Source: Candidatus Saccharimonadota bacterium (GTDB lineage Bacteria; Bacillota_I; Bacilli_A; Mycoplasmatales; Hepatoplasmataceae). From it: a stretch of DNA of 32,000 nt. The notes under the pieces were generated by a model. The model did not search any database. It saw only the letters and a program-made list of their open reading frames with translations, and was not told where the DNA came from. Below, piece by piece: positions 2,661-25,880 of the stretch. The DNA is taken from positions 1 to 32,000 of the forward strand of contig NZ_CP006932.1 of the NCBI RefSeq assembly GCF_000582535.1, in the 5' to 3' direction. The translations under genes were made by a program, and so were the position numbers. The number at the start of each line of letters is the position of its first letter. Position 1 is the first letter of the stretch.

Positions 2661-3473
2661 TTATAATTGACTAATTTTTAAATCTCTAATTTTTGTTTTA
2701 AAATCCGAATTTAAATCTCCGCTTATTTCAATTATCATTTCTCTTTTGATTTGATTTAATCATTCTTCTACTTCTTGCTCAATTTTTTTTCTTAATTTAT
2801 TAATTTTTTGATCACAATCAGCAAGAATTAAATTATCATCATTAATTTTTAATTTTAATTTCTTTGCTTCTGTAGTTAAAAAATTAAAACGATTAATATA
2901 TTTTTCAAATCCATCAAAATCTACTTTTATTATAGGAAAGATTTTAATTCTTTGATGAAATTTTTCAAATTCATCAATAAATTGATTTTTATTTTCTCTA
3001 AATTCACTTGTAATTTCTTTTAAATCATTTTTATTTTCAGCAATTTTCTTTTCCTTTGTAATAAATCCAATTTTTTTTCTTTTATTAAAGATATCATTTA
3101 AATTTAATTTTCGAAGTTTATTTATTAAGCTATCAAAAGAAACATTAATTTCTTTTAATTTTTCTTGATAATTATATTTATTTTCAATTTCTTTTTTTAC
3201 TTTAAAAATATTTTCATTTATTACATTAACTTCTTCGTTGTATTTATTTAATAAATTATATTCTTGGATAATTTTATTATTTAAAAAATTTCGATCTTTT
3301 AATAATCTTTCATTTTCTTGTAAACTATTATTTAAAATTTTAAATAATAGTTTTAATTCCTTATTATTAGGAAATTGTAAATTACTTAAAATATTTTGAA
3401 CACTAGCAGTTGAAATTATTGTTTGTTTTTTATTCTTTACTGATGTTTTATTTTGTGTTAGTTCTTTTTTCAC
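2661..3473 (-). CDS. Hypothetical coiled-coil-rich protein (270 aa)
   Basis: Track ORF 2760..3473 ends at a TGA. Reading it as Trp extends the frame to TAA (plus-strand 'tta' at 2661-2663). The protein is Lys/Glu/Asn-rich with a heptad-like composition. I recognised no signal peptide or known motif. Confidence 0.6.
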
Positions 3474-3570
3474 TTTGATCCCTTTTTGTTGTTCTACAAA
3501 TTAATTATATTATTTTAAAAAAATTAATAATTAATGTAAGATAAAATAATTTTTTTTTATTTTTATAAAT

Positions 3571-3616: not shown

Positions 3617-3643
3617 TATAATTATTTTGATTAGGGGTAGGAG
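3617..3643 (+). promoter_or_regulatory. Putative -10 box and Shine-Dalgarno of the nag operon
   Basis: TATAAT at 3617-3622 and 'ggtaggag' at 3635-3643, 12 nt before ATG 3656. Confidence 0.35.
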
Positions 3644-3655
3644 AAAAAAATTGAG

Positions 3656-5527
3656 ATGGAAGAAAAAAAGTTAGTTCAAAATAAATCTAACGAAAAAACT
3701 ATAATAAAAGAAAAAAAGCAAAAAGAAAAATTCTCTTTTCTTTCTTTTTTACAGAAAATAGGTAAATCATTAGTATATCCAATTGCTGTTCTTCCTGCTG
3801 CAGCATTAGCATTAAGAATAGGGGATGCTATTAGTGGAGCAGGAGATATGTATTCTGGAATTTGATGATTTGGATGAATTATTGAAACTCCGGGTGCTAT
3901 TATTTTTGACAATTTAGCAATGATTTTTGGAGTTGGTGTTGCTTTTGGATTAGCAAAAGATCATCGTGGAGAGGCTGCCTTAGTTGGCCTTATCGGATAT
4001 CTTGGACTTGTTGCTTTAGTTCAAAATGAACACTCTCTTACATCACTTATATATGATAATGTACTTACAAAAGATGGATATTCTCAACTTCTATATTATG
4101 TTACAGAAGTTACAAATCCAGATGGCACTACTACTATTTATGCGACTTGATTATTAAATCTTGGAGTTTTTGGGGGAATAGCAATGGGGATTCTTGCGGC
4201 TTGACTTTATAACAAATTTTCTGATATTCAATTACCAAAAGCTTTAGGATTTTTTAGTGGAAGAAGATTTGTACCAATGGTAATGCTTTTAGCTACTTTG
4301 CTATTTTCCTTTTTGATGGCTATTATTTGGCCTTGATTTCAATTAGCTCTAGTTGAATTAGCTTATGGATTATTATATATTCCCTGATTAGGAGGAGGAG
4401 TTTATATTGCTATTAATCGTTTATTAATACCAACAGGTTTACATCAAGTTTTAAATGTTTTCTTCTGATTTCAAATGCCTATTACTTGAGAAGGAAATCA
4501 AATTTTTATTCAAGATACAACAGGAACATTTGTTCCGATGTTTGGTGATATTAATGCCTTTTTAGAATCTGGATCTAATGTTGTAATTGCAATTCCAGAA
4601 ATTGGGGTAGTTGCAAATAGTGATATTGCTTATGATATTAATACTGGAACAGAAATACCTGATCGAACAGCCTTTACTTATTTACAAGAAGCAAATGTTG
4701 GAGCTTTTCAAGTTGGATTTTTTCCAATTATGATGTTTGGACTTCCTGCAGTTGGATTAGCAATTGCTAGTCAGGCAGATAAAGAGTATCGTAAAAGTGT
4801 TTATGCATTTATGATTACTGCTGCAGCAGTATCATTTTTAACAGGAATTACAGAGCCTCTTGAATTTTCATTTATGTTTGTATCTCCTTTGCTTTATCTT
4901 GCTTATGCCTTACTTTCGGGAGTTGTAGGAGCAATAACAATTGCAACAGGAGCTTCATTTGGATTTGGATTTTCAGCAGGAGCAATAGATTTTGGATTAT
5001 CTGTTCCTAATTCTCTTAATTTATCACATGGAATAAGTAGTTATGCAAATGGTTGAGGGGGATTTATTAATGTTCTTTTAATTGGAATTATTGTTTTTCC
5101 TATTTATTACCTGATGTCAATTCTTATTATTAAAAAATTTAATCTAGCAACACCAGGAAGAGGAGGAAACATTTCAGGAATAATTGAATTAGGAGAAGAT
5201 GAAAAAAATGGTATCAATTCAAAAGATGATAAATATTTCAAAATGACAATTGAAACAATTAAATTAGTAGGAAAAGATAATATCACAGATATTGATAATT
5301 GTATTACAAGATTAAGATTATCTGTAAAAGATAATTCTAATCTTAAAAAAGAAGATGCAATAAAAATTGGTTATACTGGACTTATTTCACCAGGGACAAA
5401 ATCTCTTCAATTTATTATAGGCCCAGAATCAGAAATAATTGCAAAAAATATGAAAGAAATATTTGATAATTGAGAAAATTATCAAGATTACTTTAAATAT
5501 TACGATGATAAAGTAAAAGAAAAATAA
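3656..5527 (+). CDS. nagE: PTS glucose/N-acetylglucosamine-family EIICB component (623 aa), with no EIIA domain
   Basis: Track ORFs 3656, 3920, 4538 and 5114 share frame 2 and are joined by TGA=Trp codons. EIIC motifs: 'FSGRRFVPM', 'NRLLIPTGLHQ', 'GITEPLEFSFMFVSPLLY'. EIIB phospho-cysteine motif: 'DNCITRLRL'. GlcNAc specificity is inferred only from the adjacent nagA and nagB. Confidence 0.8.
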
Positions 5528-5565
5528 ATTCAAGATGTTAAAAAAGTTTATGAAAGGGTTAAATA

Positions 5566-6681
5566 ATGATTAAAATAAGAGGCTATAATAAAGATTTAAA
5601 AAAAATTGAAATAATTTTAGAAGCAGGAAAAATTTTAAATGTTAAAGTTTTAGATCAGAAAGAAATTGTCGAAAAACAATATATAATTCCAGGTTTTATT
5701 GAAATACATTCACATGGGGGATATAATTTTGATTTTGTGTTAGCAGATCAAAAAAAATTATTATTTTTTTTAAATAAGATGGCTTTAAATGAAGGAGTAA
5801 CATCTATTTTAGGAACAACAATTACTACAGACTTACAGAAAACAAGGAAAACTTTTAAAAATCTTAGTCCTTTTATTAATAAAAAATTAAATGGAGCAAA
5901 TTTTATTGGTTGGCATATGGAAGGTCCTTTTATAAGTAAAATAAAAAAGGGAGCTCATCCAATTTCAGAAATTACCGAACCAATAATTAAAAATATAAAT
6001 AAATATATTGATGGTTATTTTAATAACATTAAATTAATTACTGTTGCTCCTGAAATTATTAATAAAGAATCATTAATTTATCTTAATAAAAAAAATATAA
6101 TTATTTCTGCTGGCCATATGAATGCAAATAAAAAGCAATTCATTGCAAAAGAAAAATATGGAATAAAATCAATTACTCATTTTAATAATGCAATGCAAAA
6201 AAATGATGATCTAAATGATAATAGTTTATCGGAATATATTATAAAAAATGATAATCTTTATATTGAATTTATAAATGATAGAATTCATAATTCAAAAGAA
6301 TTAGCAGATAAAATTTATAAAATTAAAGCAAAAGATAAAATTATGCTTGTTACTGACTCTTTACAAATAAAAGGATTAAAAGATGGAATTTACCCTGGTC
6401 CTAATGGGAATATTTATAAAAGAGATGGAGCGGCATGATTTGAAAACAAAATTTTAAATGGTTCTTGTTATACTATGTATCAAGGATTTAAAGATTGAAT
6501 TAAATATCAAAAAGCTTCTATTAGTGAAGCAGTGGCTGTAACTTCTACAAATCAAGCAAATCTTTTAAATTTAAAAAAAGGTAAAATCGAAAAAGATTAT
6601 GATGCTGATGTTTTAATTTTAGATTTTAATTTTAAAATTAAAGATGTATATGTAATGGGAAATAAAATATTGGAGAAATAA
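5566..6681 (+). CDS. nagA: N-acetylglucosamine-6-phosphate deacetylase (371 aa)
   Basis: Track ORF 5566..6438 was extended through two TGA codons (6436, 6496) to TAA 6679-6681, with every codon checked. It has the metal-binding 'GFIEIHSHGG', and its size and context fit NagA. Confidence 0.85.
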
Positions 6682-7361
6682 TGAAGATTATAAGTGGATC
6701 TAAAGAAAAATTAGAGCAATCAATTGCAGATAATATAAAAGATATTATCAATTATAAAAGTAATGCAAAACTTTTATTAGCAACAGGAAATTCACCAGTA
6801 GGGATTTATCAAAAATTAATTAATTTTTATCAAGAAAAAAAAATATCATTCAAAAATGTAATCACTTTTAATTTAGATGAATATTTAGAAAAAGATAAAT
6901 ATTTTGCTGATTCATTTCTTAATTTTATGAATCAAAAATTATTCAATGAAATTGATATAAATAAAGAAAATACATTTTTTCCAGAAAATCCTGATGAATA
7001 TAATAAAAAATTAGATAAAATTAATTTTTTTGATATTACTATTTTAGGAGTTGGAGAAAATGGACATATTGCTTTTAATGAACCAGGAAGTAAAATTACG
7101 GATCGTACAAAAATTATTGAATTAACTGATTCCACAATTAAAACAAATTTTAAAAATCGTACAAATTATCCAAAAAAAGCAATTACAATCGGAGTAAAAG
7201 ATATTCTTGAGAAATCTCAATTAATTTATATAATTGCTTGAGGAGAAAAAAAACGTAAAGCAATTGAAAAAATACTAGCAAAAAAAATTGATTCAAATTG
7301 ACCTGTTACTTATCTTTTAAATCATAAAAATGTAATTTTATTTACAGATCTTGATATTTAG
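6681..7361 (+). CDS. nagB: Glucosamine-6-phosphate deaminase (226 aa)
   Basis: The ATG overlaps the nagA stop (TAATG). It carries 'GVGENGHIAFNEPGS', the hallmark NagB motif. The frame extends through TGA 7239 and 7308 to TAG 7359-7361. Confidence 0.9.
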
Positions 7362-7490: not shown

Positions 7491-9992
7491 ATGTTTAAAA
7501 CCTCAAATTTTAATAAATTTGATGATTATTTAAATATAAATAATCCTAAATATAATATTGATAGTGGTGCGATTTATATTTTAAATGAAAGTATAAATAG
7601 AATCGAAGAATATGTATCACAAATTGAAGAAGAAATATTAAAAAATGAAGGAAATATTGCAAAATCACTAAGAGATTTTTTAGAAAATTTTTTAGAACAT
7701 TTTATTCCCGAAAAAATTAAAATAAATAATCTTTATAGAGATTTTGATTATCAAAAATATTTCAATTTTCAAAGCAGTTATGAAAAAATTACTGAATTAG
7801 ATGATTGAAATATAATTAATAAAGATATAAAAGATGCTTTGTATTTTATTAAAAATATATCAAACAATAGTTCTCATAGCAAAAATCAAAAAAATAATTT
7901 TGAAATCAATAAATCAAAAATTGTAATGTGTTTAGATTATATTTACAATATTTTATATTGATTTTATGATTTAAATTCAAGTCGTGATTTTAAATCAGAT
8001 CGATATTATAAACCAAATGAAAAAGAACCTAAAGCAGATATTAAAATAAAGCAAATTTTTTATCATGAACCTTATAAAACAATTGTAATAAATGATGATA
8101 AAATTTTAAATGTTTTATTTGATGAAGGCAAAAAGTTTTTTATTCCAATTTATCAAAGAAATTTCTCTTGAACAACAAGTGAAATCGATGAACTATTTCT
8201 TGATTTGGAAAAAAGAATAATAGATCAAAAAAATCATTTTTTTGGATTGGTTACTTTAAGTAATACTAATAATTTTCGTAAATCTGCTAACAAAAAAATT
8301 TATTTATTAAAAATTGTTGATGGTCAACAAAGATTTACAACAATTGCTTTATTTGTAAAAGCTTTGTATATTAATTATTTAAAAGAATTAAAACACGAAG
8401 ACAAAATTGATAATAAGTTAGCAAAATTTATTAACAATAAAAATTTACCAATTGACAGATTTGATGATAAAAAATCAATTGAAGCTTTTAGAATTATATG
8501 AGAAAAAGATAAAAAATTATTAAAATCAAATAAAAATTATCTTAAAGGAAACAATATTTATGAAATATATAAATATTTATTAAAAAAAATTTCTGATTTT
8601 AAAAAACCTAAAAATGAAGAAGAATCAATAATTGGAAATTTAGATAAACTATACCAAAGTTTAAAAAAATTAGTAATTGGAATAAATTGAACAAAAGATT
8701 ATGATGAATTTGAGCTTTTTGAATCAATAAATTCTAAAGGAGTTTTACTTACTAATTTTAATATTTTTAAAAACTATATAATATCTCTTGTTTCTAATCA
8801 AGAAGAAGATCAAATAGGAGAAATAGGTTTAATTTTTAATGATGATAAATCAAAGCAAATAACAACTTTATTTGATTATTATATTGTTGAAAAATTAAAT
8901 TTATGATTAGGAAATAATAAAGAAAAAGATTTTGAAAAAATAACAAATAATTTTTTCAATTCTTATATTAATTTTTATAGTAATAGTAAAACAAATGAAA
9001 AAAGATTATTTTCCCAATTTAAATCATTATTTTCCAATCAATTAAAACAAAAATATAATAAGATCGATAATTTTTCCTTACAAGAATTTGAAAATATTTT
9101 AAAGGATTTATCAGTATTTTTAAATACTTATTTATTTTTAAATATAGGAACATATCAAATTTGAAGTAAAAGTTCAATCTTATCTGATTATTATAAATAT
9201 TTTTATTCATTAGCAGGAACAAGTTTTGTAAATATTTTAATTCCTTATTTAATTAGTGAAGAAAATATTGTATTCTCAGATAAAGGAGCTATTATAAGAA
9301 TTAAAAATCCTTCAGAATTTATTGATATTCTTAAATTTATTCAAAATTGAAGAATAAGACTAGGAGCTGTAAATTCAAAAGAAAATTATGGAATTAAAAT
9401 TTTAAATTTTTCTAAAAAATTTAATCAAATCTTAGAAATTAATAAAAAAAATGGATTATTAATAGAACCTTTTTTAAATTTATTAAAAAAAGCTATTTCA
9501 AATGAAGATAATTTATTAAAATTTCCAGATGATCAAAAATTTTATAATGTTCTTGCAAATGAACCAATTTATAATGCTCAAATTTTAAAAGATATTATTT
9601 TTAAAATTGTACATCAAAATAATTATTCAATTGATGAACAAAAATTTAGTAAATATGATGTTTATCCTATTGTTGAAAAAGAAGCAAAAAAACGTAGCGA
9701 GGAATGAAATAGATTTTTACAAAAATTTAATAATATCACAGAGGAATCTTGTTTAAGATTAGGCAATTATTTTTTTCATAAAATAAATAAATTAATTAAA
9801 AAAAATGAAAAAGATAGTTTTGATTCTTTAATTAAAAATATAGAATATGATAATTTTACAATAAATAATAATAGTAATTTTGAGATTTTAGCATTAAAAG
9901 ATCTGAAAAATTATTATGGAAAAAACATAAACGATTATTTTATAGAGAGATCAAAATATTTTGCAATAAAAGCAAAAGAAATATTTAAATAA
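7491..9992 (+). CDS. DUF262 (GmrS/ParB-like NTPase) protein of the GmrSD type IV restriction family (833 aa), with an extra N-terminal domain and a divergent DUF1524-like C-terminus
   Basis: Frame 3 was checked codon by codon from 8460 to TAA 9990-9992. It contains only TGA interruptions and joins track ORFs 7491..7808 and 8205..8501. DUF262 motifs: 'FIPIYQRNFSW', 'IVDGQQRFTTIALF' (DGQQR at 8319-8333), 'FELFESINSKGVLLTNFNIFKNY'. C-terminal segments: 'DVYPIVEKE', 'LGNYFFHKINK', 'INDYFIERSKYFAIKAKEIF'. Confidence 0.75.
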
Positions 9993-9994
9993 AT

Positions 9995-10024
9995 AAAAAA
10001 ACATGTTTTAAAACATGTTTTTTT
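9995..10024. terminator. Bidirectional rho-independent terminator between convergent genes
   Basis: Perfect 11-bp stem aaaaaaacatg (9995-10005) / catgttttttt (10014-10024) around the loop ttttaaaa. The arms supply the A-run and T-run, so it reads as hairpin plus U-tract on both strands. It lies between stop 9992 (+) and stop 10047 (-). Confidence 0.7.
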
Positions 10025-10046
10025 ATTTTGTTTTTTATCTAAATTA

Positions 10047-12857
10047 TTAGATAGAATCAGTTCTTACTGTTGTAGGAGTAATAGATTGATAATAATCTTC
10101 ATAATTTATTGTACTTATTTCTATAAAGGTATATTCTGTATTAGGAATTAAATTATTTACTTTAAAAGTAAATTGATATTTTTCTGTTCCTTCGATACTT
10201 CCTTTTCCTATATATATTGCAGAATTTTCAATATAATCAGATTGATAATATTTATTTGAATCATCTTTTAAAAAAATTCCATTATAAGGATTGAAATTAT
10301 TAAAAGTAGGATTATTAATATTAGAATTATCTTTTAATTTTAAATTATCAATTTGAATTGAAAATTCAAAAGAATTTGAAGTAATTGAATTTTCAAATAT
10401 AACAAAAGAATCTGTAATTAATGAAATTTCACTATTTTCTGATGATTCAACTGTAATAGGTTCATCAAAATAAACTATTTCAGGGTTTTCTGTATAAAAT
10501 GGATTATCTAGAGATAAACCAGTAAAAATATATGTATTATTATTTTCTAAATTTAAACCATTTTGTTGGAAGATAAATTCATAATCATAATATCCAGCAA
10601 TACTACTATATCCAATTAAATTACTATCTAAATAAGTAGAATTGTAATAATTATTATTTTGATCAATTAATCAAATTCCATTATTTACATCATAATTTTC
10701 AAAACCTGTTTCATCAGCATTTGGTTTTAAATTATCAATTTCAACAGAATAATTAAAAGAATTATTTGTAATAGAATAATTAATTACACCAAATGAATTA
10801 GCAATTATTGAGGGATTTTGTGATTTTGTTATAAAAGTCATAGGATCTTGTTCTATTTTATATTTATAACTTCCATCTTCATAAAAATATTGAATTGAAG
10901 TAATTTGATAATTTGTATCTATACTTAAATTATTTAATTTGATTTTATAAGAATCATCTAAAGTTACTTTTTTATGATAAGTTGTATTTAAATCAAGATT
11001 TGTATAATTTATTTTTACTTGTCTTTGATCATTTGTATAATTATTAATATCAAAAGCTTCACCATTTTGTGTTAAATTTAAACTAATTGTTGCATCTGTA
11101 CTATTAATTATGCTTACTCAATAATCAGAAATTATGTAATCTGTTAAAATGGAATAATCTTCAATATTAATTTCATATCCATCAATAATTATTGAATCAA
11201 TTGTATATTCTTCTCCTCTTATAAAATCACCATCAATTCGATAATAATATGAATCTTCTTCAATATTTGATCTACCATCAATAAATGTAGTATTATAAAT
11301 TTTTCCATTATTATCTTTTATTTTAATTGACGGAATATCATTAATTACATTTAAAGCATCATTTAAATTTAATTGAACAAATAATTTATTATTTAAATAA
11401 TAAAATTGATAATTATTTAAAATATTAGGAATTGTAGAAAAAATTGCTTCAAATTCTAATAAATTATCATCGCTTGCATTTCCACCATTTCCTAATTGCC
11501 CATAAGCATCATTTCCTGCCATATACAATGTATCAGCAATACTGTCATTATTATAATCAATTAATATTCCTGAATGTCCATTTCCTAAACTGATATCAGT
11601 AATTTTTCCTTGTCATTGATCATTTTTAGGAGTTATCATAGTCGGGGTTAATAAATTTGTTATTGTTCCATTACCAAGTTGTCCATATTGATTATTTCCT
11701 CACATATAAAGTGTATCTGCATATTGTTCATTAATTTCTTCATTTGAATTTACAACAACTGATGAATAATTTCCACCTAATGATACATCATAAATGCTTC
11801 CTCCTCAATCATTATTTTCTGGTGTTATTATAGTTGGTGTAGAAACATCAATTTCTGTTCCATTTCCAATTTGTCCATATTGATTATTTCCTCACATATA
11901 AAGTGTATTATTTGTTCTAGCTGGATCTTCTAAATTTTCATTAATTAATAAACTAGAATCATCACCATTTAATTCAAAATCTATAAATGTTCCATTTCAA
12001 GTACCACTTTGTGGAACAACAATTATTGGAGTAGTAGAAAAACCACCTGTTGTTTCATTTCCGATTTGTCCATTACTGTTATTTCCTCACATATAAAGAA
12101 CATTACCATAACCATCATTTATAGAATCGGTGTCAATAGTAACTCCTGTATGATTGTATCCTAAATCAAGATCAACAATATTTCCACCTCAAGTACCACT
12201 TTCTGGATTTATAATTTGTGGACTTGGATAATAACCTGTTCCTGTTGTTCCGTTATTACCAATTTGACCATATTGGTTGCTTCCTCACATATAAAGTGTA
12301 TCTGCATATCCATCTAAATTTGTATCAATAGTAACTCCAGTATGATTATATCCCAAATCAAAATCAATAATATTTCCGCCTCAATTTGTTTGGTCTGTTG
12401 GAGTTATTATTTTTGGAGTAGTAGTATTTTTAATCGTTCCATCTCCAATTTCACCTTTAGAGTTATTTCCTCACATATATAGTGTATCTGCATATCCATC
12501 TAAATTAGTATCTACAGTTAAACCACTAGTGAGTCCATTTAATGAAAAATCAATAATATTTCCACCCCAATCATTTTGATTTTGTGGTAGTATTTTTATC
12601 GGATAAAATTGATTTATAGCTGTTGCATTTCCAATTTGTCCTTTATCATTTCTTCCTCACATATAAAGTGTATCTGCATATCCATTTTCATCTGTATCAA
12701 TTGTTATACCACTATGGAAATCTCCTGCTTCAAAATCTTTTAAAACAATTTTCTCTCCTAATTTTACATTTTCATTTAAATCTTTATAATTAGAACTATT
12801 ATATCCAAAAGCAATAACTATTGGAATAATAGTAATAGCACTAATAATTTTTTTCAT
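10047..12857 (-). CDS. Signal-anchored RCC1-like seven-bladed beta-propeller protein with C-terminal FN3-like beta-sandwich modules (936 aa), paralog A
   Basis: The minus frame was checked triplet by triplet. It has no TAA/TAG between ATG (12855-12857) and TAA (plus-strand tta 10047-10049), and many TGA=Trp codons. This joins track ORFs 12657..12857 and 11118..11528. N-terminus: 'MKKIISAITIIPIVIAFGYN'. Seven repeats carry 'YMWGxNxxGQ(I/L)GxG'. C-terminus: 'NSFEFSIQIDNLK...NNLIPNTEYTF'. Confidence 0.85.
11481..12752 (-). repeat. Seven in-frame tandem repeats of about 183-195 nt (RCC1-like blades) in paralog A
   Basis: The core 'cctcacatata[at]a[ag]tgtatctgcatatcc' (encoding GYADTLYMWG) recurs near 12654, 12470 and 12284. 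Degenerate copies lie near 12086, 11890, 11699 and 11520. Confidence 0.85.
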
Positions 12858-12868
12858 ATTCTTGATTT

Positions 12869-12922
12869 AAAAATTCTCTCTTTCTCAATTTTATTTAATC
12901 TTACATCCAAAAAAATTATATT
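12869..12922 (-). promoter_or_regulatory. Conserved promoter/5' leader of paralog A, duplicated upstream of paralog B
   Basis: On the minus strand it reads AATATAATTTTTTTGGATGTAAGATTAAATAAAATTGAGAAAGAGAGAATTTTT. It has a TATAAT (plus coordinates 12915-12920) and a purine-rich SD-like 'GAGAAAGAGAG'. Apart from one extra T it is identical to 15743-15796. Confidence 0.45.
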
Positions 12923-12937
12923 ACTTTTTTTTTAAGA

Positions 12938-15721
12938 TTACATTAATGTTTTTACTATTACATCATCTATATTTGTATAGTTATTATTAGTAACTATTTT
13001 AGCTTCTGTAAATGTATAAGTTGTGTTTGAATTTAAGCCATTAATTTGAAAAGTAAATTGATATTTTGATGTTCCTGTTGTTGTTCCGTTTCCAAGATAA
13101 ATTTCACTTTCTAAAATATAATCTGATCTAAATATTTGCCCCAAATTATTTTTTAAATATAATCCATTTTTTGGATTAAAATTACTAAAAATTGGATCAT
13201 TTAAATTAGATCCATTTTCTAATTTCAAATTATCAATTTGGATTACATAATTAAATGAATTAGAAGTAATTGAATTCTCAATTACTGAAATAGAATTAGC
13301 AATAATTAATGGTTCTTGTTCTCCAACTCCTGTTGTTGTTACAGAAATTAAGGAATTAAAATTATAAATTGTTGGATTTAATGTTTGTTCTAAATTATCA
13401 AGTGTGATACCAGTAAATAAATATGTAGTATTTGAATTTAATCCACTTTGATTAAAGACAAATTGGTAATTATAATATCCTTGATATTCACTATATCCAA
13501 TTTGTTGATAATCTAAATAAGTAGAATTATAAATATTATCATCATTATCAATTAATCAAATTCCATTATTTACATCATAATTTTCAAAACCTGTTTTATC
13601 AGCATTTGGTTTTAAATTATCGATTTCAACAGTATAATTAAAAGAATTATCATTAATTGAATAATCAATTACAGTAAAAGAATTAGATATTATTTTAGGA
13701 ATTGCTTCATTTGTTTTAAAATTTAAAGAATCTTGTTCTACCTTATATTTATAACTTCCATTTTCATAAAAATATTGGATTGAAGTAATTTGATAATTTG
13801 TATCTATATTTAAATTATTTAATTTAATTTTATAAGAATCATCTAAAGTTACTTTTTTATGATAAGTTGTATTTAAATCAAGATTTGTATAATTTATTTT
13901 TATTTGTCTTTGATCTTCGGTATATTTATCAAGAGAAAAATTCTCTCCGTTATTATTTAAATTTAAGCTAACGGTAGCTTCTGAAGAATTTACATTTGTT
14001 ATTTTAAAATCTGAAATTAAGTAATCAGTAGTAAATTGATAATTATTTATATTAAATTGATTTCCATTAATTATTAATGTATCAAATATATAAGTTTGTC
14101 CACGATCAAAATCATAATCTATTCGATAATAATATGAATCTTCTTCAATATTTGATCTACCATCAATAAAAGTTGTATTATAAATATTTCCATCTGAATC
14201 TATGATTTTTACTTCTATTGTTTCATCAATTGTTTCTAATACATCATTAAATTTCAATTCAATAAATATTTTTCCATTAATAGAATAAAATTGAAATGTA
14301 TTTAGTAAATTAGGAATAGTAGAAGCTATTGGAATAAAATAGATTTTCTTTGAATCTTTTGAATTGCCCCCATTTCCTAATTGTCCATAATTATCACTTC
14401 CACACATATATAATGTATCTGCAAAATTATCTTTATTATTATCAATAAGAACTCCAGTAAAATTTTGACCTGAAGAGACATCAATTATATTTCCATTTCA
14501 ATCCGATTCATTTTCCGGTGTAATAATTTTTGGATTTAAAATATTATTTTGAGTTCCATCACCAAGCTGTCCGTTATTATTGCCTCCTCACATATACAAT
14601 GTATCTGCAAAATTATCCTTATTATTATCTATGATAACGCTGCTATTATAATGTCCTAATGATAAATCAACAATATTTCCATTTCAATTCTCTTGATTTT
14701 GTGGAGTAATTGTAGTTGGATATCAAACATTTGGTCCTATTGTTCCATTTCCAATTTGTCCATTACCATTTGCTCCTCACATATATAATGTATTATAATT
14801 TTCACCTGAATTATTATCCACTACGATTCCGGTATGATTTCTTCCTAATGATAAATCAATAATATTTCCATCTCAATCATCTTGATTTTGTTGTCTTATA
14901 ATTGTAGGATAATATTTATCATTACTTGTACCATCACCAAGTTGTCCATACTGATTATCTCCTCACATATATAATGTATCTGCATATCCATCATAATTAG
15001 AATCTATAGTTGCTCCACTATGATAGATTCCAAAAGAGATATCATAAATTGCTCCATTCCAATTACCATTTTCTGGGGTTATTATTGTTGGATTTAAAAT
15101 ATTAGATCCACTTGATCCATTTCCAATTTGTCCACTATTATTATATCCTCACATATATAATGTATCTGCATAACCGTCATAATTAGTATCAATACTAACT
15201 CCACTATAATTATTACCTGCATCTAAATCTATAATATTTCCATTTCAATTATTTTGATTATTGGGTGTAATTTTTTTTGGTATATATGTATCCTTTGTTG
15301 TTCCATCACCAATTTCTCCATTTGAATTTCTTCCTCACATATATAATGTATCTGCATAACCATCATAATTAGTATCAACAGTAATTCCACTATGATCTCC
15401 ATTTAAAGAAATATCAATAATATTTCCATTTCAATTATCTTGTCCTTTTGGTGTAATTTTTATTGGATAATATTTGTTTATTGTTGTTCCATCACCTATC
15501 TGACCTTGATTATTATATCCTCACATATATAATGTATCTGCATAACCATCAAAATTTGTATCAATAGTTATACCACTATGATAATCTCCTACTTCAAAAT
15601 CCTTTAGAACAATTTTTTCTTCTATTTCTTTATTTTTATTTAATTTTTTATAATTTGAATTATTATATCCAAAAGCAAAAACTATTGGAATAATCGCAAT
15701 AGCGCTAATAATTTTTTTCAT
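12938..15721 (-). CDS. Signal-anchored RCC1-like seven-bladed beta-propeller protein with C-terminal FN3-like modules (927 aa), paralog B
   Basis: The minus frame was checked triplet by triplet from ATG (15719-15721) to TAA (plus-strand tta 12938-12940). This joins track ORFs 15521..15721, 13556..14407 and 12938..13228 through TGA=Trp. N-terminus: 'MKKIISAIAIIPIVFAFGYN'. It has seven 'YMWGxNxxGQ(I/L)GxG' blades, the last reading 'YMCGSDNYGQLGNGG'. Confidence 0.85.
14362..15616 (-). repeat. Seven in-frame tandem repeats (RCC1-like blades) in paralog B
   Basis: The core 'cctcacatatataatgtatctgcata' starts at 15518, 15333, 15147 and 14961, with variants at 14775, 14586 and 14402. The first four copies are nearly identical over about 46 nt. 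Confidence 0.85.
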
Positions 15722-15742
15722 TTTTTCTAATTTTTATAAATT

Positions 15743-15796
15743 AAAAATTTTCTCTTTCTCAATTTTATTTAATCTTACATCCAAAAAAATTATATT
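15743..15796 (-). promoter_or_regulatory. Conserved promoter/5' leader of paralog B
   Basis: Same sequence as 12869-12922. TATAAT lies at plus coordinates 15789-15794 on the minus strand. Confidence 0.45.
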
Positions 15797-15915
15797 CCTT
15801 TTAAATTTAAAATTTAAAATGTTTTAACTAGAATAAATTATTTATATTTTTAAAATATTATTAATTATTTTAATTTTATTTTTTAGAAAAAAATTATCTA
15901 AATTTTCCCTTTATA

Positions 15916-15945
15916 AATATATAATACTTTCAAGTATTATATATT
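15916..15945. promoter_or_regulatory. 13-bp perfect inverted repeat overlapping the putative -10 of the rsmA operon
   Basis: aatatataatact (15916-15928), loop ttca, agtattatatatt (15933-15945). It contains TATAAT at 15920-15925 and ends 20 nt before the TTG start at 15966. RBS 'gaggt' lies at 15955-15959. Confidence 0.3.
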
Positions 15946-15965
15946 GAATTTAATGAGGTAATCTA

Positions 15966-16766
15966 TTGCTAAAACCAAAAAAAAATCTTGGGCAAAACTT
16001 CTTGGTTGATAAAAATAAAATAAATGAAATTATTAATATTCTTCCAAATTTAAAAAACAAAACAGTAATTGAAATTGGTCCGGGAACAGGAAATCTTACA
16101 AATAAATTATTAGAAAATTCAAATAAAGTAATTGCAATTGAAATTGATGAGGATATGATTAATTTAATAAAAAATAATCAAATAATAAACAAAAGAAATT
16201 TAATTTTAATTCATAGCGATATTTTAAAAATTAATTTAAATAAATTAATTGTAAATGAAAATGATGTTTACTTAATTTCAAATCTACCTTATTATATTTC
16301 AACTAAGATAATATTTGAAATGTTTAAGTATCCTAAAATATCAATTTTTGCAATTATGTTACAAAAGGAATTGGTTGATCGAATATTTGCAAATTCTAAT
16401 ACAAAAAAATATGGAAGATTAACTATTGCAATAGGAAGTTTATTTTCACTTGAAAAAAAAATAAATGTTCCTAAAGAATGTTTTAAACCAATTCCGAAAG
16501 TAGATTCAGGATTCATTATTTTAAAAAGAAAAAAAATAAATTTTGATTATAATTTATTTCTTTTATTTATTAAAGATTGTTTTGCAAAAAAAAGGAAAAC
16601 TTTACTTAATTCTTTAAAAATTACAGAAAATCCTTATTTTGAATTTGTTAAACTATATTTAATTAGAAACAAATTTAAATTAAATATAAGAGCAGAACAA
16701 ATATTAATTGAAGATTATTTAAAAATATGGAAAGAAATTGAAAATGCAAAATTCAAAAATAAATAA
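15966..16766 (+). CDS. rsmA: 16S rRNA (adenine1518/1519-N6)-dimethyltransferase (266 aa)
   Basis: TTG start preceded by GAGGT. Motifs: N-terminal 'LGQNFLVD', SAM-binding 'EIGPGTGNLT', and 'SNLPYYIST'. Confidence 0.9.
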   Translation: MLKPKKNLGQNFLVDKNKINEIINILPNLKNKTVIEIGPGTGNLTNKLLENSNKVIAIEIDEDMINLIKNNQIINKRNLILIHSDILKINLNKLIVNENDVYLISNLPYYISTKIIFEMFKYPKISIFAIMLQKELVDRIFANSNTKKYGRLTIAIGSLFSLEKKINVPKECFKPIPKVDSGFIILKRKKINFDYNLFLLFIKDCFAKKRKTLLNSLKITENPYFEFVKLYLIRNKFKLNIRAEQILIEDYLKIWKEIENAKFKNK

Positions 16767-17730
16767 TTCAATCATTTTTGGATTATCAACATTAAAAAAA
16801 ATAGCAGAAGAAGTATCGGTAAAGACAAAAATAAAACTAGGAGATTCTGAAATTAAACATTTTAAGGATGGTGAAATTTATTTCGAATTAGAGACATCTG
16901 TACGAAATAAAAGAACATTTATTATTCAATCAACTTCGAATCCTGTAAATGAAAATTTAATGGAATTATTAATTTTTATTGATACATTAAGAAGATCATC
17001 AGCAAAAGAAATAAACTTAATTATTCCTTATTATGGTTACGCTAGACAAGATCGAAAAAATAATGGAAGACAACCAATTACTGCAGCACTTGTTGCTAGA
17101 CTTTTAGAAGAGGCTGGTGCTAGCAGAGTTATTTGCTTTGATTTACATTCTCCACAAATTCAAGGTTTTTTTAGAATTCCTGTTGATGATTTAAGAGCTT
17201 ATGGACTTTTAGCAAGGGAAATAAAAAAAGAAAAAATAGAAAATTTAATTATTATTTCTCCTGATCATGGGGGAGTTTCTCGAGCAAGAAGTCTTGCTAA
17301 AATTCTTGATTCTGAAATAGCAATTATAGATAAAAGAAGAATAAAAGCAAATGAAGCTATTGTTGGTAATTTAATAGGAAATGTAAAAGGTAAAAATTGT
17401 GTAATTGTAGATGATATTATAGATACTGGAGGAACAATTATAGAAGGTATTAAAATTCTTAAAAAAAACGGAGCAAATAATATTTATGTTGCTGCTACAC
17501 ATAGTTTATTTTCTAGATCAAAAGATGAAGATTATGATATTGTTTGAAAAAAAATAAAAGAAGCAGGAGCAAAAATGATTATTACAACAAATTCAATAAA
17601 TAATCATTCAAAAGATAAATTTTTAAAAATAATAAATCTTGCAACTCCAATTGCAGATGTTATTTTAAAACATATTAATGATCAATCAATTATTGATCAT
17701 TTTATTAAGAAATATAATACTGTTATTTAA
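16744..17730 (+). CDS. prs: Ribose-phosphate pyrophosphokinase (328 aa)
   Basis: 'YYGYARQDRK', 'DLHSPQIQGFF' and the PRPP loop 'VDDIIDTGGT'. The frame extends through TGA 17545 to TAA 17728-17730. I preferred ATG 16744 to the track's TTG 16738. It overlaps the end of rsmA by 23 nt. Confidence 0.9.
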
Positions 17731-17743
17731 TTATTTTATAAAT

Positions 17744-18319
17744 ATGAAATTAATTGTTGGGTTAGGTAATCCAGGAAGTAAATATAAAAATACAAGGCAT
17801 AATCTTGGATTTATGATTATAGATTATTTTTTAGAAAAAAATAATCTTATTCTTGATAAAAAAAAATTTAATGGTTGTTATTTAATTTCTAATTTTAATA
17901 ATGAAAAATATATAATTGCAAAACCGCAAACTTATATGAATTTATCAGGAGAATTTGTAACCAAAATATCTTCTTATTATAAAATTAAACCAGAAGATAT
18001 TTTGGTTATTTCAGATGACAAAGATCAAAATTTAGCGAATTTTAAACTTAAAAATAATGGTTCTTCAGGTGGACATAATGGCATTAAAAATATTATTTTA
18101 AATTTAAATACAGAAAATTTTAATCGCTTGAAAATAGGAATTGGTCCTTTTTTAAAAGAATATAATCTTATAAATTATGTTCTAGGAAATTTTTCTTTAA
18201 AAGAATTAGAAATTTTAAAAGAAAAATTTTCTTTATATTTAAAAATAATAGAAGATTATTTAAAAATTGATTTTAAGGAATTACAAGAAAAATATAATGG
18301 TAAAAAATATCAAAAATAA
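17744..18319 (+). CDS. pth: Peptidyl-tRNA hydrolase (191 aa)
   Basis: ATG 17744 gives the canonical N-terminus 'MKLIVGLGNPG...TRHNLGF'. The track start at 17678 is an alternative codon inside prs. Confidence 0.9.
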   Translation: MKLIVGLGNPGSKYKNTRHNLGFMIIDYFLEKNNLILDKKKFNGCYLISNFNNEKYIIAKPQTYMNLSGEFVTKISSYYKIKPEDILVISDDKDQNLANFKLKNNGSSGGHNGIKNIILNLNTENFNRLKIGIGPFLKEYNLINYVLGNFSLKELEILKEKFSLYLKIIEDYLKIDFKELQEKYNGKKYQK

Positions 18320-19235
18320 AAATATTATTGTTGCTGTTTCGGGAGGACCTGATTCAATTTTTTTGTTATCTAAATTAGTAAAAAAAAAATACAAAATAAT
18401 TGTAGCTCATGTTAATTATCATTTTCGCAAAGAATCAAATCAAGAAGAAGAATTAGTAAAAAAGATTTGTAATGAGAATTCATTTATTTTTGAAAGATTA
18501 TCTGTTGATAAAAAAATTGAAAAAATTTATTCAAAAATTAATAATAATCAAGAAGCTTATGCAAGATTAATTAGATATGATTTTTTTAAAGAAATTGCTA
18601 AAAAATACCAAACTAATTATTTATTTTTAGGACATCATAAAGATGATTTTTTGGAGACAGCAATAATGCAAGAAAAAAGATCAAATAAATATCTCTTTTA
18701 TGGAATTAATAAAAAAAATTATTATCAAAACCTAATTTTAATTAGACCGTTTATTAATAAATATTGAAAAGAAGAAATTATTGAGAAATTAAACAAAGCA
18801 AAAATTGATTATAAAATTGATAAATCAAATTTTAGTGATAAATATTTAAGAAATCAGATTAGAAAAAAATTATTTTTATTAAATTTAAAAGAAAAAGAAA
18901 AAATGCTTGATTATTATAAAAAAATAAATTCAGCAAATGAAAGAAAAAGAAAAAAAATTGATAAGATTTTTAAAAATTGAAGAATTAAAGATTATGACGT
19001 TGATTTTTTTAATAATCAAAAAGATTTATTAAAAGAAAATTTAATTTATAAATATCTTTCAACACAATTTATTGATGAAAATATATCAATCAATAATAAT
19101 AAAATAAAAGCAATAATTTTATTTATTAAAAATAAAAGAGGAAATAAAAATTATCGATTAAAAGAAAATTTATTTTTAAAAATAAAAAACCAAAAATTAA
19201 TTTTTTTGAAAGATAATTTTAAAATTAATAATTAA
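18297..19235 (+). CDS. tilS: tRNA(Ile)-lysidine synthase (312 aa)
   Basis: PP-loop 'VAVSGGPDS' and 'LGHHKDDFLET'. The frame was checked through TGA 18765 and 18978 to TAA 19233-19235. It overlaps the end of pth by 23 nt. Confidence 0.85.
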
Positions 19236-19284
19236 TTTAATATAATTAATTTTATATTTACTATAAATTGTATACATTTTAAAT

Positions 19285-19836
19285 ATGGGAACTGAGAATA
19301 ATTACTTATTAAAAACAATAAAAACAGATCAAGAAATAAATAAAGCAGTTTCAAATTTAGCAAAAATATTGAATAATCGTTTTAATAATGAAAAAGTTGT
19401 TTTTATTATTATAATGAAAGGCGGATTGTATTTAGGATTAGATCTTGCAAGAAAATGTAAATTTGATATTGCATTTGATTTTATTTATTCTAATTCTTAT
19501 TATTTAAATAAAAAGTTAAATAAACCTAAAATAACATATAAGAAAACAATTGATCTAAAAAACGAAAACATTATTATTATTGATGATTTAATTGATAGTG
19601 GGGAAACAATTTTTAAAATTATTAAAATTTTAAAAAAACAGAAACCGTTATCTATTTCTGTTATTGCACTTTATAATAAAAGAAGAAATAATGAATTTTT
19701 AAAAGATATTAAAAAATATATTTGTTTTTCTGAAATTCCTCCTGGTTTCTTATTGGGATATGGTTTAGATTATGATGAGAAATACAGAAATTTAAATTAT
19801 CTTGGTATAATTAAATCTAATAATATAAAGGAATAA
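19285..19836 (+). CDS. hpt: Hypoxanthine phosphoribosyltransferase (183 aa)
   Basis: PRPP motif 'IIIIDDLIDSGET' and 'LLGYGLDYDEKYRNL'. The tilS-hpt-ftsH order is typical of Firmicutes and Mollicutes. Confidence 0.85.
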   Translation: MGTENNYLLKTIKTDQEINKAVSNLAKILNNRFNNEKVVFIIIMKGGLYLGLDLARKCKFDIAFDFIYSNSYYLNKKLNKPKITYKKTIDLKNENIIIIDDLIDSGETIFKIIKILKKQKPLSISVIALYNKRRNNEFLKDIKKYICFSEIPPGFLLGYGLDYDEKYRNLNYLGIIKSNNIKE

Positions 19837-19837
19837 A

Positions 19838-21994
19838 ATGTTTTTAAACGATTCAAGTATCAAAGAACAAGATTTATTATCTCTTAGAGGCGAAGATCCA
19901 AATTCAAAAAATAATAATTCTGAATCTAATTCTGAAGTTGAAAAAGATAAGAAATCTAATTCAAAAGAGAATGAAAAAAATCAGGATAATAAATCTAAAC
20001 AAAATACAGATTTAAATAATCCTAGTCCTAAAACAGAAAAAAAACCGGTTGGTCCAATACCTCCCAAAAAGAAAAAATCATCATTATCAACAATTTTATG
20101 ATTATTATTCTTTTTCTTTCTGATTTTAATTCTTTTTGCTTTAATTTTTAATGTAAATTATACTTATCTTACACCAACTGAATTAGCAGATCAAATTAAT
20201 TCTGCTGTTATTGGAACATCTATTGATATTAATGGTCTTGTTATTCAAGATTCAGATCAACTTGTTCAAGTAACTGTTATTATTGATGCCCCGAGTGGAT
20301 ATGAATATTATTATACTTATTTTGCTAATGTTGATGATTATCAAACCTGATTAGAAGATAGTATATTAGCAAGTAATCCAAATATTTTAAATATAGATTA
20401 CTCACTTTCTTATCAAACAACATCAGTCTTTTGAAGTTTAGTTGCATTTTTACTTCCTCTTATAATAATTGTTGGAATTACTGTTTGAATATTTAAAAAA
20501 ATTATTCAAAGTCAATCAAACATTGGTAAAGCTTCTAAAAAAACTTTACTTCCACAGATTTCAAATGTTAGATTTTCTGATGTTCAAGGTTACGAAGAAA
20601 TTAAACAAGAATTATATGAAATAGTTGATTTTTTAAAACAACCAGATAAATATTCTAAATTTGGAGCAAGGACTCCAAAAGGTGTAATGTTATCAGGTCC
20701 TCCCGGAACAGGAAAAACTTTATTTGCAAAAGCAATTGCAGGAGAAGCAACAATTCCATTTTATTCAATTTCTGGTTCAGATTTTGTTGAAATGTTTGTT
20801 GGAGTAGGTGCTTCAAGAGTAAGATCTCTTTTTGAACAAGCAAAAAAAACTTCTCCTTCTCTTATTTTTATTGATGAATTAGATGCTGTTGGTCGAAGAA
20901 GAGGTGCTGGTCCTGGTGGTAATGATGAGCGTGAACAAACTTTAAATCAATTATTAGTTGAAATGGATGGATTTTCACCTAATTCAGGAATTATTGTAAT
21001 TGCTGCAACAAATCGTCCAGATGTATTAGATCCAGCTCTTAAACGTCCAGGTAGATTTGATAGATTAATTGATATTAGACTACCCGATGTAAAAGAAAGA
21101 GAAGCAATTTTAAGATTACATGGTTCTAAAGGAAATAAAAAATTCTCAAAAGATGTAAATTGAATAAATATTTCAATGCGAACTCCAGGATTTTCTGGAG
21201 CAGAACTTGAAAATGTTATTAATGAAGCAGCCATCTTAGCAGTAAGAGAAAAATTAAATGAAATTACACTAGATACTATTGATGAAGCAATAGATCGTGT
21301 AATTGGAGGACCTGCAAAAGCAAATAATGCAATGTCACAAGAAGAAAAAATTTTAATTGCTCATCACGAAGCAGGACATGCTTTAATTGGACTTATTCTA
21401 AAAGATGCAGAAAGAGTACAAAAAATTTCAATTGTTCCTAGGGGGTCTGCTGGTGGATATGTTTTAATGACACCCAAAAAAGAAAAAATTATTCAAACAA
21501 AAGCAGAACTTAATGCAAAAATTATTTCATATCTTGGAGGTCGTGTTTCAGAAGAAATTTTCTTTGGAAAAGACGAAATTACAACTGGTGCATATTCAGA
21601 TATTCAAGAAGCAACAAAAATTGCTCGAAGAATGATTATGGATTTTGGAATGAGTGAAAATTTAGGAGCAATCCAATGAAATTCACAAGAAGTTAATTCA
21701 TATGGAATGTATGAAAAAAATTCAGTAAGTGAAAAAGTTTCGGAATTAATTGATAAAGAAATCCGTGAATTAATTAATAAATCATATGTAAAAGCTCATG
21801 AAATTATTTCAAATAATAAACCAATGATTGAACTTTTTGCAAAAGCCTTACTTATTAAAGAAATCTTAAATACAGAAGATATTGATTATATTTATAAAAA
21901 TAAAAAATTAACTAATGAAATGATTGAACTTGAAAAAAAGGAAAATCTTAATTCAAAAAAAACAAAAGAAAATAATAAAACTGATAAAAAATAA
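19838..21994 (+). CDS. ftsH: ATP-dependent zinc metalloprotease FtsH (718 aa)
   Basis: Four track ORFs (19838, 20687, 21176, 21707) share frame 2 and are joined by TGA=Trp. Motifs: Walker A 'GPPGTGKT', SRH '[19 protein letters not shown]', zinc site 'HEAGHA'. A low-complexity Asn/Lys/Ser-rich tail of about 85 aa precedes TM1. Confidence 0.95.
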
Positions 21995-22135
21995 TTATCA
22001 ATTATTAGGGAAATTAAATTATTAAATATTGTGGAATATTTGCTTTTAGTAATAAAAATATTGATCTATATTTTTTCGATAATTGGAGTACTAATATTAC
22101 TTTACTTTTTCTTTAATTTTTGAAAAACTAGACAG

Positions 22136-25867: not shown

Positions 25868-25880
25868 TAGGAAAACAAAC

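Follow-up and report, generated by a model that had tools for sequence, protein, structure and literature searches.

The window analyzed here (the whole stretch of 32,000 nucleotides (nt) from position 1 of contig NZ_CP006932.1) belongs to Candidatus Hepatoplasma crinochetorum strain Av, as identified by an exact protein-sequence look-up and residue comparison. It contains two adjacent minus-strand genes, A and B, which are a tandem-duplicated pair in a Hepatoplasmataceae family of proteins with an RCC1 propeller on a stalk of fibronectin type III (FN3)-like or immunoglobulin (Ig)-like domains. We propose that the products of A and B are exported, ligand-binding propellers on a stalk, anchorless forms that would contact the host brush border, the matrix or other cells, and we give this reading a probability of about 0.6. 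The protein kind, the family and the two genes themselves are already in the public record and the literature. The additions made here are incremental: two overlooked family members, their missing anchor, a clade-specific acidic hairpin, and a duplicated leader with conversion tracts. The strain inhabits the hepatopancreas of isopods (woodlice), where it is an ectosymbiont on the brush border (PMC10928387).

Gene models and genetic code

The window has a G+C content of ~22%, carries dnaA and dnaN at its start, and requires translation table 4, also for its housekeeping genes. The two genes are as follows.

10047-12857, minus strand: gene A, RCC1 propeller and four beta-sandwich domains, 936 residues; table 4 open reading frame (ORF), exact match to AHK22131.1 / WP_025208428.1
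12938-15721, minus strand: gene B, paralog of gene A, 927 residues; table 4 ORF, exact match to AHK22132.1 / WP_025208429.1 (P0122)

AHK22131.1 and AHK22132.1 are both named 'RCC1 repeat protein' in GenBank, and the two proteins are 59% identical. Each gene contains 13 in-frame TGA codons and a single TGG, and in each the tryptophans of the LYMWG motif are all encoded by TGA (6/6). Because TGA thus falls at the invariant tryptophan of the RCC1 signature, it is read as tryptophan. The initial annotation, made from the sequence alone, had read two minus-strand genes with table 4, and both ORFs are indeed intact; of the span it gave (10047–15800), the start is correct, while the end lies ~80 nt beyond the start codon of gene B. 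The alternative that these are fragmented pseudogenes, with TGA as a stop, is refuted: table 11 breaks the region into ORFs of only 148–313 residues, but TGA stands at every conserved tryptophan of the WG motif, the housekeeping genes in the window likewise need table 4, and the frames are intact in two or three independent genomes, with a ratio of nonsynonymous to synonymous change (pN/pS) well below 1.

Orthologs are found in strain Tokyo2021 (AP027132.1), where HCTKY_0090 differs from gene B by one residue and HCTKY_0080 from gene A by five; the average nucleotide identity of the two strains is 98.4% (PMC10928387). The same locus is present at ~99% identity on a soil-metagenome contig (L002). 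Relative to this copy, pN/pS is 0.33 for A and 0.19 for B, on counts of 6–12 synonymous changes, with no frameshifts; the neighboring genes have values of 0.08–0.27. Across independent samples, both genes keep intact frames and evolve under purifying selection.

Seven-bladed RCC1 propeller

The N-terminal half of each protein folds, in the predicted models, into a propeller.

11439-12746, minus strand: seven-bladed RCC1 propeller of gene A, residues 38-473; AlphaFold 2 (AF2) strands, Foldseek match to UVR8 with a template-modeling score (TM-score) of 0.89-0.93, blade alignment
14324-15610, minus strand: seven-bladed RCC1 propeller of gene B, residues 38-466; AF2, Foldseek match to UVR8 with a TM-score of 0.92, motif counts

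Seven repeats of 61–66 residues, anchored on LYM[WAC]G, are present per protein, and the blades within one protein are unusually alike (50–56% pairwise identity). The Pfam RCC1 profile (PF00415) matches six to seven stretches, with E-values of 7.7e-48 (161 bits) for A and 6.7e-57 (190 bits) for B against a cut-off of 21.7 bits. The RLD profile (PF25390) scores 158 and 211 bits for A and B, respectively (cut-off 150), and RCC1_2 (PF13540) scores 49 and 42 bits (cut-off 22). No NCBIfam model matches either protein.

The AF2 models were built with an alignment of 19 family members for P0001 (one residue from gene B) and P0002 (eight residues from gene A), and have a mean predicted local distance difference test (pLDDT) score of 86.3 and 84.2, respectively. 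Twenty-seven beta-strands and a closing strand (residues 458–466 in B and 465–473 in A) add up to 28, or seven blades of four strands, with a 3+1 velcro closure. The top Foldseek match in the PDB is UVR8 (TM-score 0.92, root mean square deviation (rmsd) 2.4 Å, E = 9e-30 for B; TM-score 0.89–0.93 for A), followed by HERC2, RPGR, WBSCR16, RCC2 and RCC1. Profiles above their cut-offs, seven repeats, 28 modeled strands and a TM-score of ~0.9 to UVR8 together confirm the seven-bladed RCC1 propeller proposed in the initial annotation. The velcro closure, which had been predicted from a partial blade before the first WG, is seen in both models, where the last strand completes the first blade.

The propellers share with eukaryotic RCC1-like domains (RCC1, UVR8, the HERC2 RLD and RPGR) the Pfam RCC1 signature and the seven-bladed velcro fold, with TM-scores of 0.7–0.92 and rmsd values of 2.4–3.7 Å. 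However, sequence identity is only ~20%, the eukaryotic domains are intracellular whereas A and B carry a putative export signal and a stalk, and the blades of A and B have an additional acidic hairpin of nine residues. A guanine-nucleotide exchange factor (GEF) or chromatin function is not expected for A and B.

Acidic hairpin loop of the blades

The hairpin precedes the LYMWG strand and has the consensus D-[TS]-N-x-D-G-Y-A-D (D-[TS]-N-[FY]-D-G-Y-A-D in blades 1–4 of B). Four of the blades in B and three in A have the motif, the remaining blades having degenerate forms (e.g. D-N-N-K-D-N-F-A-D), and its aspartates at positions 1, 5 and 9 belong to the small set of columns that do not vary in the alignment of 19 paralogs. 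In the AF2 model it spans the loop that joins two strands of a beta-hairpin. A relaxed form of the motif, placed directly before [LIVF][YFW]x[WAC]G, is present in four to seven copies in each of the Hepatoplasma proteins and of the related P0025, P0031, P0035, P0051 and P0056, and is absent (0 occurrences) from the ~95 other bacterial RCC1 proteins retrieved. By this sequence distribution, the D-x-N-x-D-G-x-x-D hairpin is specific to the Hepatoplasma-related Mollicute clade.

The motif D-x-[DN]-x-D-G-x-x-D is the Ca2+-binding hairpin of integrin alpha and FG-GAP propellers. The likeness extends beyond the nine residues, since in both cases the motif is set in a beta-hairpin within an extracellular propeller of seven blades and recurs in several of them; the blades of A and B, however, belong to a different family (RCC1). 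By analogy, the acidic hairpins could be structural Ca2+ sites, a role in keeping with a position outside the cell.

A different acidic loop, D-[VI]-D-G-D-G-x-x-G-[ND]-E, is present in P0058, P0060 and P0072, which are encoded on Mollicute-like contigs inside large NCBI assemblies (e.g. GCA_040777385.1); it is located in another hairpin, after the P-x-x-I strand. Judged from these sequences, acidic Ca2+-type loops may have been inserted independently at two blade positions in different lineages.

Stalk

The remainder of each protein consists of four beta-sandwich domains in the models.

10062-11420, minus strand: stalk of gene A, four beta-sandwich (FN3/Ig-like) domains, residues 480-932; AF2, Foldseek matches to the FN3 arrays 1fnf and 3t1w, homology of domains 3 and 4
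12950-14305, minus strand: stalk of gene B, four beta-sandwich domains, residues 473-924; AF2, Foldseek match to 1fnf (E = 4e-10), phmmer match of domain 3 to domain 4

In gene B the domains comprise residues 473–565, 571–670, 683–795 and 812–924. A phmmer comparison shows homology between domains 3 and 4 (E = 2e-16). The C-terminal half had been described from its sequence as ~480 residues of beta-sandwich modules, the last two repeating each other, and the models and the phmmer match agree with that description. Foldseek aligns the C-terminal ~480 residues with FN3 domains 7–10 of fibronectin (1fnf, E = 4e-10; 3t1w) and with the FN3 ectodomains of Sevenless and ROS1 (E ~1e-10). The proposed FN3 likeness therefore holds for the fold, through these FN3 arrays, but fails for the sequence profile, as Pfam fn3 finds no match. 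The best Pfam match in the C-terminal ~450 residues is to the FN3-like Pur_ac_phosph_N, at E = 0.024 and 15.6 bits, below the cut-off of 30. An exhaustive HMMER search with a profile of domains 3 and 4 against 1.84 billion representative proteins recovered only the Hepatoplasma family (P0004, P0010 and the fragments P0127 and P0128) and two spurious repeat proteins. The stalk is FN3/Ig-like by fold and an orphan by sequence.

N-terminus, family topology and the missing anchor

Both proteins start with MKKIISAI(T/A)IIPIV(I/F)AFGYN, which comprises MKK, a hydrophobic core of 14–15 residues with a proline, and A-F-G.

12801-12857, minus strand: signal-like N-terminus of gene A, residues 1-19; sequence, Kyte-Doolittle peak, AF2 helix 2-17 with low pLDDT
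15665-15721, minus strand: signal-like N-terminus of gene B, residues 1-19; sequence, Kyte-Doolittle, AF2

The models have a low-confidence helix at residues 2–17/18, followed by a disordered linker of ~20 residues up to residue 37. No cysteine is present within the first 40 residues of either protein, and neither has the lipobox of a mollicute lipoprotein; the hydrophobic signal or anchor without a lipobox cysteine is as described earlier. By eye, MKK / IISAIAIIPIVFAF / A-F-G fits a Sec signal peptide, with a basic n-region, an h-region of 7–15 residues and small residues at −3/−1. From their sequences, the N-termini look like cleavable signal peptides more than 20-residue anchors.

Hepatoplasma genomes contain many paralogs of A and B at 36–50% identity. 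Paralogs are also present in strain Ps, H. scabrum, the metagenome-assembled genomes (MAGs) GLR43 and DT_51, and Mycoplasma sp. Bg1 from Bathynomus. Five architectures are seen in the family.

~455-463 residues: signal and propeller
~510 residues: signal, propeller and transmembrane helix
~660 residues: signal, propeller and two sandwich domains
~870-990 residues: signal, propeller, four sandwich domains, transmembrane helix and basic tail
~1140-1250 residues: signal, propeller, four sandwich domains, transmembrane helix and long K/E-rich tail

Aligned with P0004, P0005, P0011 and P0013, A and B are 39–49% identical over 87–98% of their length, and stalk domains 1–4 are matched in order. A signal, an ectodomain, a C-terminal transmembrane helix and a basic tail are present in 13 of the 19 aligned family members and in most family ORFs of related genomes. 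Lysine or arginine follows directly after the C-terminal helix of the paralogs, in keeping with the positive-inside rule. This arrangement of signal, C-terminal helix and basic tail would place the propeller and stalk outside the cell, and the topology of the anchored paralogs is the strongest support, from sequence, for a surface-directed family.

The proteins of A and B have no second hydrophobic segment that could serve as a type I anchor and end right after domain 4. No downstream coding remnant is found in the 54 nt between gene A and the convergent gene, or in the 80 nt between B and A. Given the lack of a C-terminal anchor, A and B are probably released or tethered by their N-termini. 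We lean towards release, because removal would best account for the homologous signal of the anchored paralogs. The initial annotation had called the pair surface-directed; paralog topology upholds an extracytoplasmic ectodomain, while display on the surface does not follow for A and B, which lack the C-terminal anchor and may be released.

The longest paralogs (P0008, P0009, P0010; L003 9848–13711; L004 3176–6622), of 1140–1250 residues, have a Cys/Trp-rich transmembrane segment, e.g. DCCFPLWWWVALIIILL, and after it a tail of ~200 residues, rich in K and E, in which the motif 'EITELSKIV..I..ENK.IKKDIKEISKKKK' is repeated. This tail is possibly a cytoplasmic coiled coil. In Mycoplasma sp. Bg1, a stomach symbiont of Bathynomus, six consecutive same-strand genes for a signal and an RCC1 propeller occupy 9914–23718 of locus L012 (LSMX01000003.1). 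Five of them encode a C-terminal transmembrane helix, and the last gene extends past the end of the locus; their blades have 'NNGDHLYTWG' in place of the acidic D-x-N-x-D-G-x-x-D loop.

The tandem pair

Identical sequence is found both upstream of and within the two genes.

12877-12922, minus strand: 46-nt leader/promoter block upstream of gene A, with TATAAT and GAGAAAGAGA; exact repeat of the gene B copy
15751-15796, minus strand: 46-nt leader/promoter block upstream of gene B, identical to the gene A copy; four short-read contigs break here
10888-11036, minus strand, partner in gene B at ~13773-13921: near-identical tract in stalk domain 2, 96-98% nucleotide identity; sliding identity, 76-nt exact run against a 71% background
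9991-10028, minus strand: AT-rich hairpin and U-run after gene A; fold energy -16.3 kcal/mol, z = -5.9, matched by none of 200 shuffles

The leader contains a TATAAT box and a purine-rich stretch; its identical run of 46 nt lies before both start codons, so each gene has its own copy of the promoter-leader. No significant RNA structure is predicted for the two copies (z = +0.9 and −1.2). A promoter scan of the window returned 61 sites against 68 expected and is uninformative in DNA of 22% G+C, and Rfam and tRNA searches of the window gave no matches. Logan short-read contigs from four independent Sequence Read Archive runs (SRR17180998, SRR3458570, SRR35255167 and SRR4046665; loci L016, L017 and L020–L022) carry the adjacent genes, and all begin 199 nt upstream of ksgA. 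These starts (window position ~15767) fall inside the duplicated leader, which indicates that the repeat breaks the assemblies and that the pair is present in those four samples.

At the DNA level, A and B are 71% identical overall, in a mosaic pattern. Identity is lowest (50–60%) in blades 4–6 and domain 4, and reaches 96–98% at nt 1822–1970 and 2092–2150 of gene A, within the coding sequence of stalk domains 2 and 3; stretches without any mismatch measure 76, 50, 50 and 46 nt. Since synonymous positions are also identical within these tracts, gene conversion is their likeliest origin. The hairpin that follows gene A is probably a bidirectional terminator for gene A and the convergent GmrSD-like gene.

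Function of the A and B proteins

In the reading we prefer, a Sec-type signal-like N-terminus would direct A and B across the single membrane, where the propeller would act as a ligand-binding head for a component of the host brush border, the matrix or a neighboring cell, and not as a nucleotide-exchange factor. The D-x-N-x-D-G-x-x-D hairpins would bind Ca2+ and so make the extracellular head more rigid. A and B would be soluble, released forms of an adhesin-like family, or else be held only by an uncleaved N-terminal signal-anchor, and segmental gene conversion would keep parts of the two proteins identical while the propeller blades diverge. The life of the organism as a brush-border ectosymbiont and the host-symbiont role proposed for the family (PMC10928387) speak for this reading, and the extracellular RCC1 proteins of bee-gut Bifidobacterium asteroides (PMC3447821) are an analogue.

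Several points weigh against this reading. The peptidase table published for four Hepatoplasmataceae genomes contains no signal peptidase I or II (PMC10928387, Supplementary Table 4), which makes cleavage and release of A and B uncertain. If the N-terminus were retained to anchor the protein, the propeller would sit next to the membrane, opposite to its position in the anchored paralogs. In the domain assignments, Pfam fn3 (PF00041) has no match at E≤1 in A or B, and no Pfam FG-GAP match is found in either, so that the likeness to integrins is one of analogy and not of membership. The synonymous counts behind the pN/pS values are also small.

A more detailed version of the preferred reading can be offered tentatively. 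The Hepatoplasmataceae propellers might form a Ca2+-dependent RCC1 subclass with an integrin-like hairpin in every blade and up to seven metal sites arranged in a ring. The anchorless pair near oriC would then be a secreted arm that coats or cross-links the brush border and symbiont cells, kept identical in part by gene conversion and served by one duplicated promoter-leader.

Two alternatives keep the proteins outside the cell and assign them another task; we consider both unlikely, and to a similar degree. In the first, A and B are secreted enzyme inhibitors, released propellers that block an enzyme of the host or of a competitor through the propeller face. The lack of a C-terminal anchor suits this role, RCC1-like propellers are protein-protein binders with 'enzyme inhibition' among the functions of the superfamily (PMC10928387), and BLIP-II, the beta-lactamase inhibitor of Streptomyces exfoliatus, has been cited as a bacterial precedent (PMC3447821). 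BLIP-II resembles A and B as a secreted bacterial seven-bladed RCC1-like propeller that acts by protein-protein binding (PMC3447821). However, it is a single domain with neither a stalk nor acidic loops, whereas the four-domain stalk of 450 residues in A and B, which the anchored paralogs also have, is better suited to display or reach. BLIP-II also has no detectable sequence match to A and B; it is absent from the PDB sequence matches at E≤0.01 and from the top 50 fold matches.

In the second, the released proteins are cohesion or matrix factors that bridge Hepatoplasma cells or coat the epithelium, in the manner of Bap1 and RbmC of Vibrio cholerae. The lining of the brush border or the thick mats formed by Hepatoplasmataceae (PMC10928387) and the presence of two potentially binding ends in anchorless proteins are compatible with this. 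Loops of the Ca2+ type would be typical of matrix proteins, and the propeller-bearing biofilm adhesins of V. cholerae could serve as a precedent (PMC10102183). A and B, however, are not homologous to Bap1 or RbmC, and the case for a cohesion factor is one of analogy alone.

A third alternative, a glycan- or chitin-binding scavenger linked to the neighboring N-acetylglucosamine genes, seems more doubtful still. Beta-propeller lectins exist, the host is chitinous, and genes for a phosphotransferase system (PTS) EIICB, nagA and nagB lie 3–6 kb away. But these genes are on the other strand, separated from gene A by the GmrSD-like gene and the terminator hairpin, and homologs of nag, ksgA or GmrSD are not detected in the loci with paralogs from strain Ps, H. 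scabrum and other Hepatoplasmataceae; nor does Pfam report a lectin or carbohydrate-binding module profile in A or B. Finally, a eukaryote-like RCC1 effector with GEF activity on host small GTPases (of the Legionella LegG1 type), possibly acquired from the host, is very improbable despite the RCC1 profile matches and the eukaryotic origin of the best solved-structure relatives (UVR8, HERC2, RPGR, RCC1), given an ectosymbiont with no known translocation system, a topology of signal, FN3-like stalk and (in the paralogs) transmembrane anchor, closest relatives outside the family that are bacterial surface proteins, an identity of only ~20% to eukaryotic RLDs, and the rejection of a recent eukaryotic transfer by Kawato et al. 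(PMC10928387). The initial annotation had likewise argued for extracytoplasmic ligand binding over a GEF role, and the signal-like N-terminus, the stalk and the transmembrane-anchored paralogs support this.

The reading of A and B as exported binding propellers concerns a dominant, possibly beneficial symbiont of the digestive glands of woodlice. The RCC1-propeller family takes up ~25 kb of a 0.64–0.66 Mb genome, with at least nine genes in the sister strain, and by this size ranks among the few candidates for a host-contact system in Hepatoplasma. Our refinement separates anchored from anchorless forms and points to a testable Ca2+ dependence; it leaves what is known of RCC1 domains in bacteria unchanged.

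Relation to known RCC1 families

The family was described by Kawato et al. (2024), who screened Hepatoplasmataceae MAGs for eukaryote-like proteins and found seven proteins with RCC1 repeats in H. crinochetorum Tokyo2021 and ten such proteins in H. scabrum (PMC10928387). One of these, HCTKY_2170 (BDV02923.1), was predicted to consist of a seven-bladed propeller and four Ig-like folds. Transfer from eukaryotes was judged unlikely, and a role in host-symbiont interaction was suggested (PMC10928387). A and B correspond to this family in species, in the propeller with four Ig-like folds, and in the proposed interaction with the host. They differ from members of the HCTKY_2170 type in that they have no C-terminal transmembrane helix and tail. 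RCC1 similarity was called 'slight' in that study (PMC10928387), compared with Pfam E-values of 1e-48 to 1e-57 for A and B here. HCTKY_0080 and HCTKY_0090, the orthologs of A and B, are missing from the list of beta-propeller proteins (Table S5 of PMC10928387); together with the seven listed, they bring the family in Tokyo2021 to at least nine members. The paper on the Av genome (Leclercq et al., 2014) makes no mention of the A and B proteins (PMC3942034).

A comparable family was reported by Bottacini et al. (2012), who found 19 extracellular RCC1 proteins in Bifidobacterium asteroides PRL2011 from the bee gut (PMC3447821). Here, too, exported propellers are expanded in a gut symbiont of an arthropod and are of bacterial rather than eukaryotic origin (PMC3447821). 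The B. asteroides proteins, however, use an LPXTG/sortase anchor, and in place of FN3-like orphan domains they have Listeria-Bacteroides (InlB B) repeats. The Bifidobacterium proteins P0030 and P0112 are among our homology matches; P0030, a related match, has no acidic hairpin loop, and the similarity (26–34% identity) is limited to the propeller. In the homology search as a whole, 8000 candidates were scored and 6583 of them reached E≤1e-3, giving thousands of bacterial RCC1 proteins, many with fusions to InlB B-repeats, type IX secretion system (T9SS) sorting domains, dockerins or FN3 domains.

Three statements of the initial annotation are not supported by these comparisons. It had described RCC1 domains as only sporadic in bacteria, against thousands of bacterial matches and the B. 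asteroides family (PMC3447821). It knew of no characterized Mollicute example, while the Hepatoplasma RCC1 family was published in 2024 (PMC10928387) and A and B bear the name 'RCC1 repeat protein' in GenBank. It had also regarded the two copies as a large investment for a reduced genome; the pair does not stand alone, since the sister strain has nine or more genes of this family.

Genomic neighborhood

The gene convergent with gene A (7491–9992, plus strand) encodes an 833-residue protein with a GmrSD_N/DUF262 domain (PF03235), resembling type IV restriction enzymes. PADLOC finds no match for the A or B protein and thus no tie to the defense context of this neighbor. The genes that flank the pair in the window have no homologs in the loci with paralogs that were covered in strain Ps, H. 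scabrum and other Hepatoplasmataceae. A 270-residue ORF with no Pfam match on record (2661–3500, minus strand) is encoded opposite to dnaN and the PTS gene, in the interval between them. PTS EIICB, nagA (amidohydrolase) and nagB (glucosamine-6-phosphate isomerase) stand in a row after dnaA/dnaN (3641–7361, plus strand) and are a cluster for N-acetylglucosamine uptake and catabolism in the symbiont of a chitinous host. Further downstream, a 1242-residue FtsX-domain permease (22136–25864, plus strand), very large for a 0.66-Mb genome, is followed by an ATP-binding cassette (ABC) ATPase (25878–26816, plus strand).

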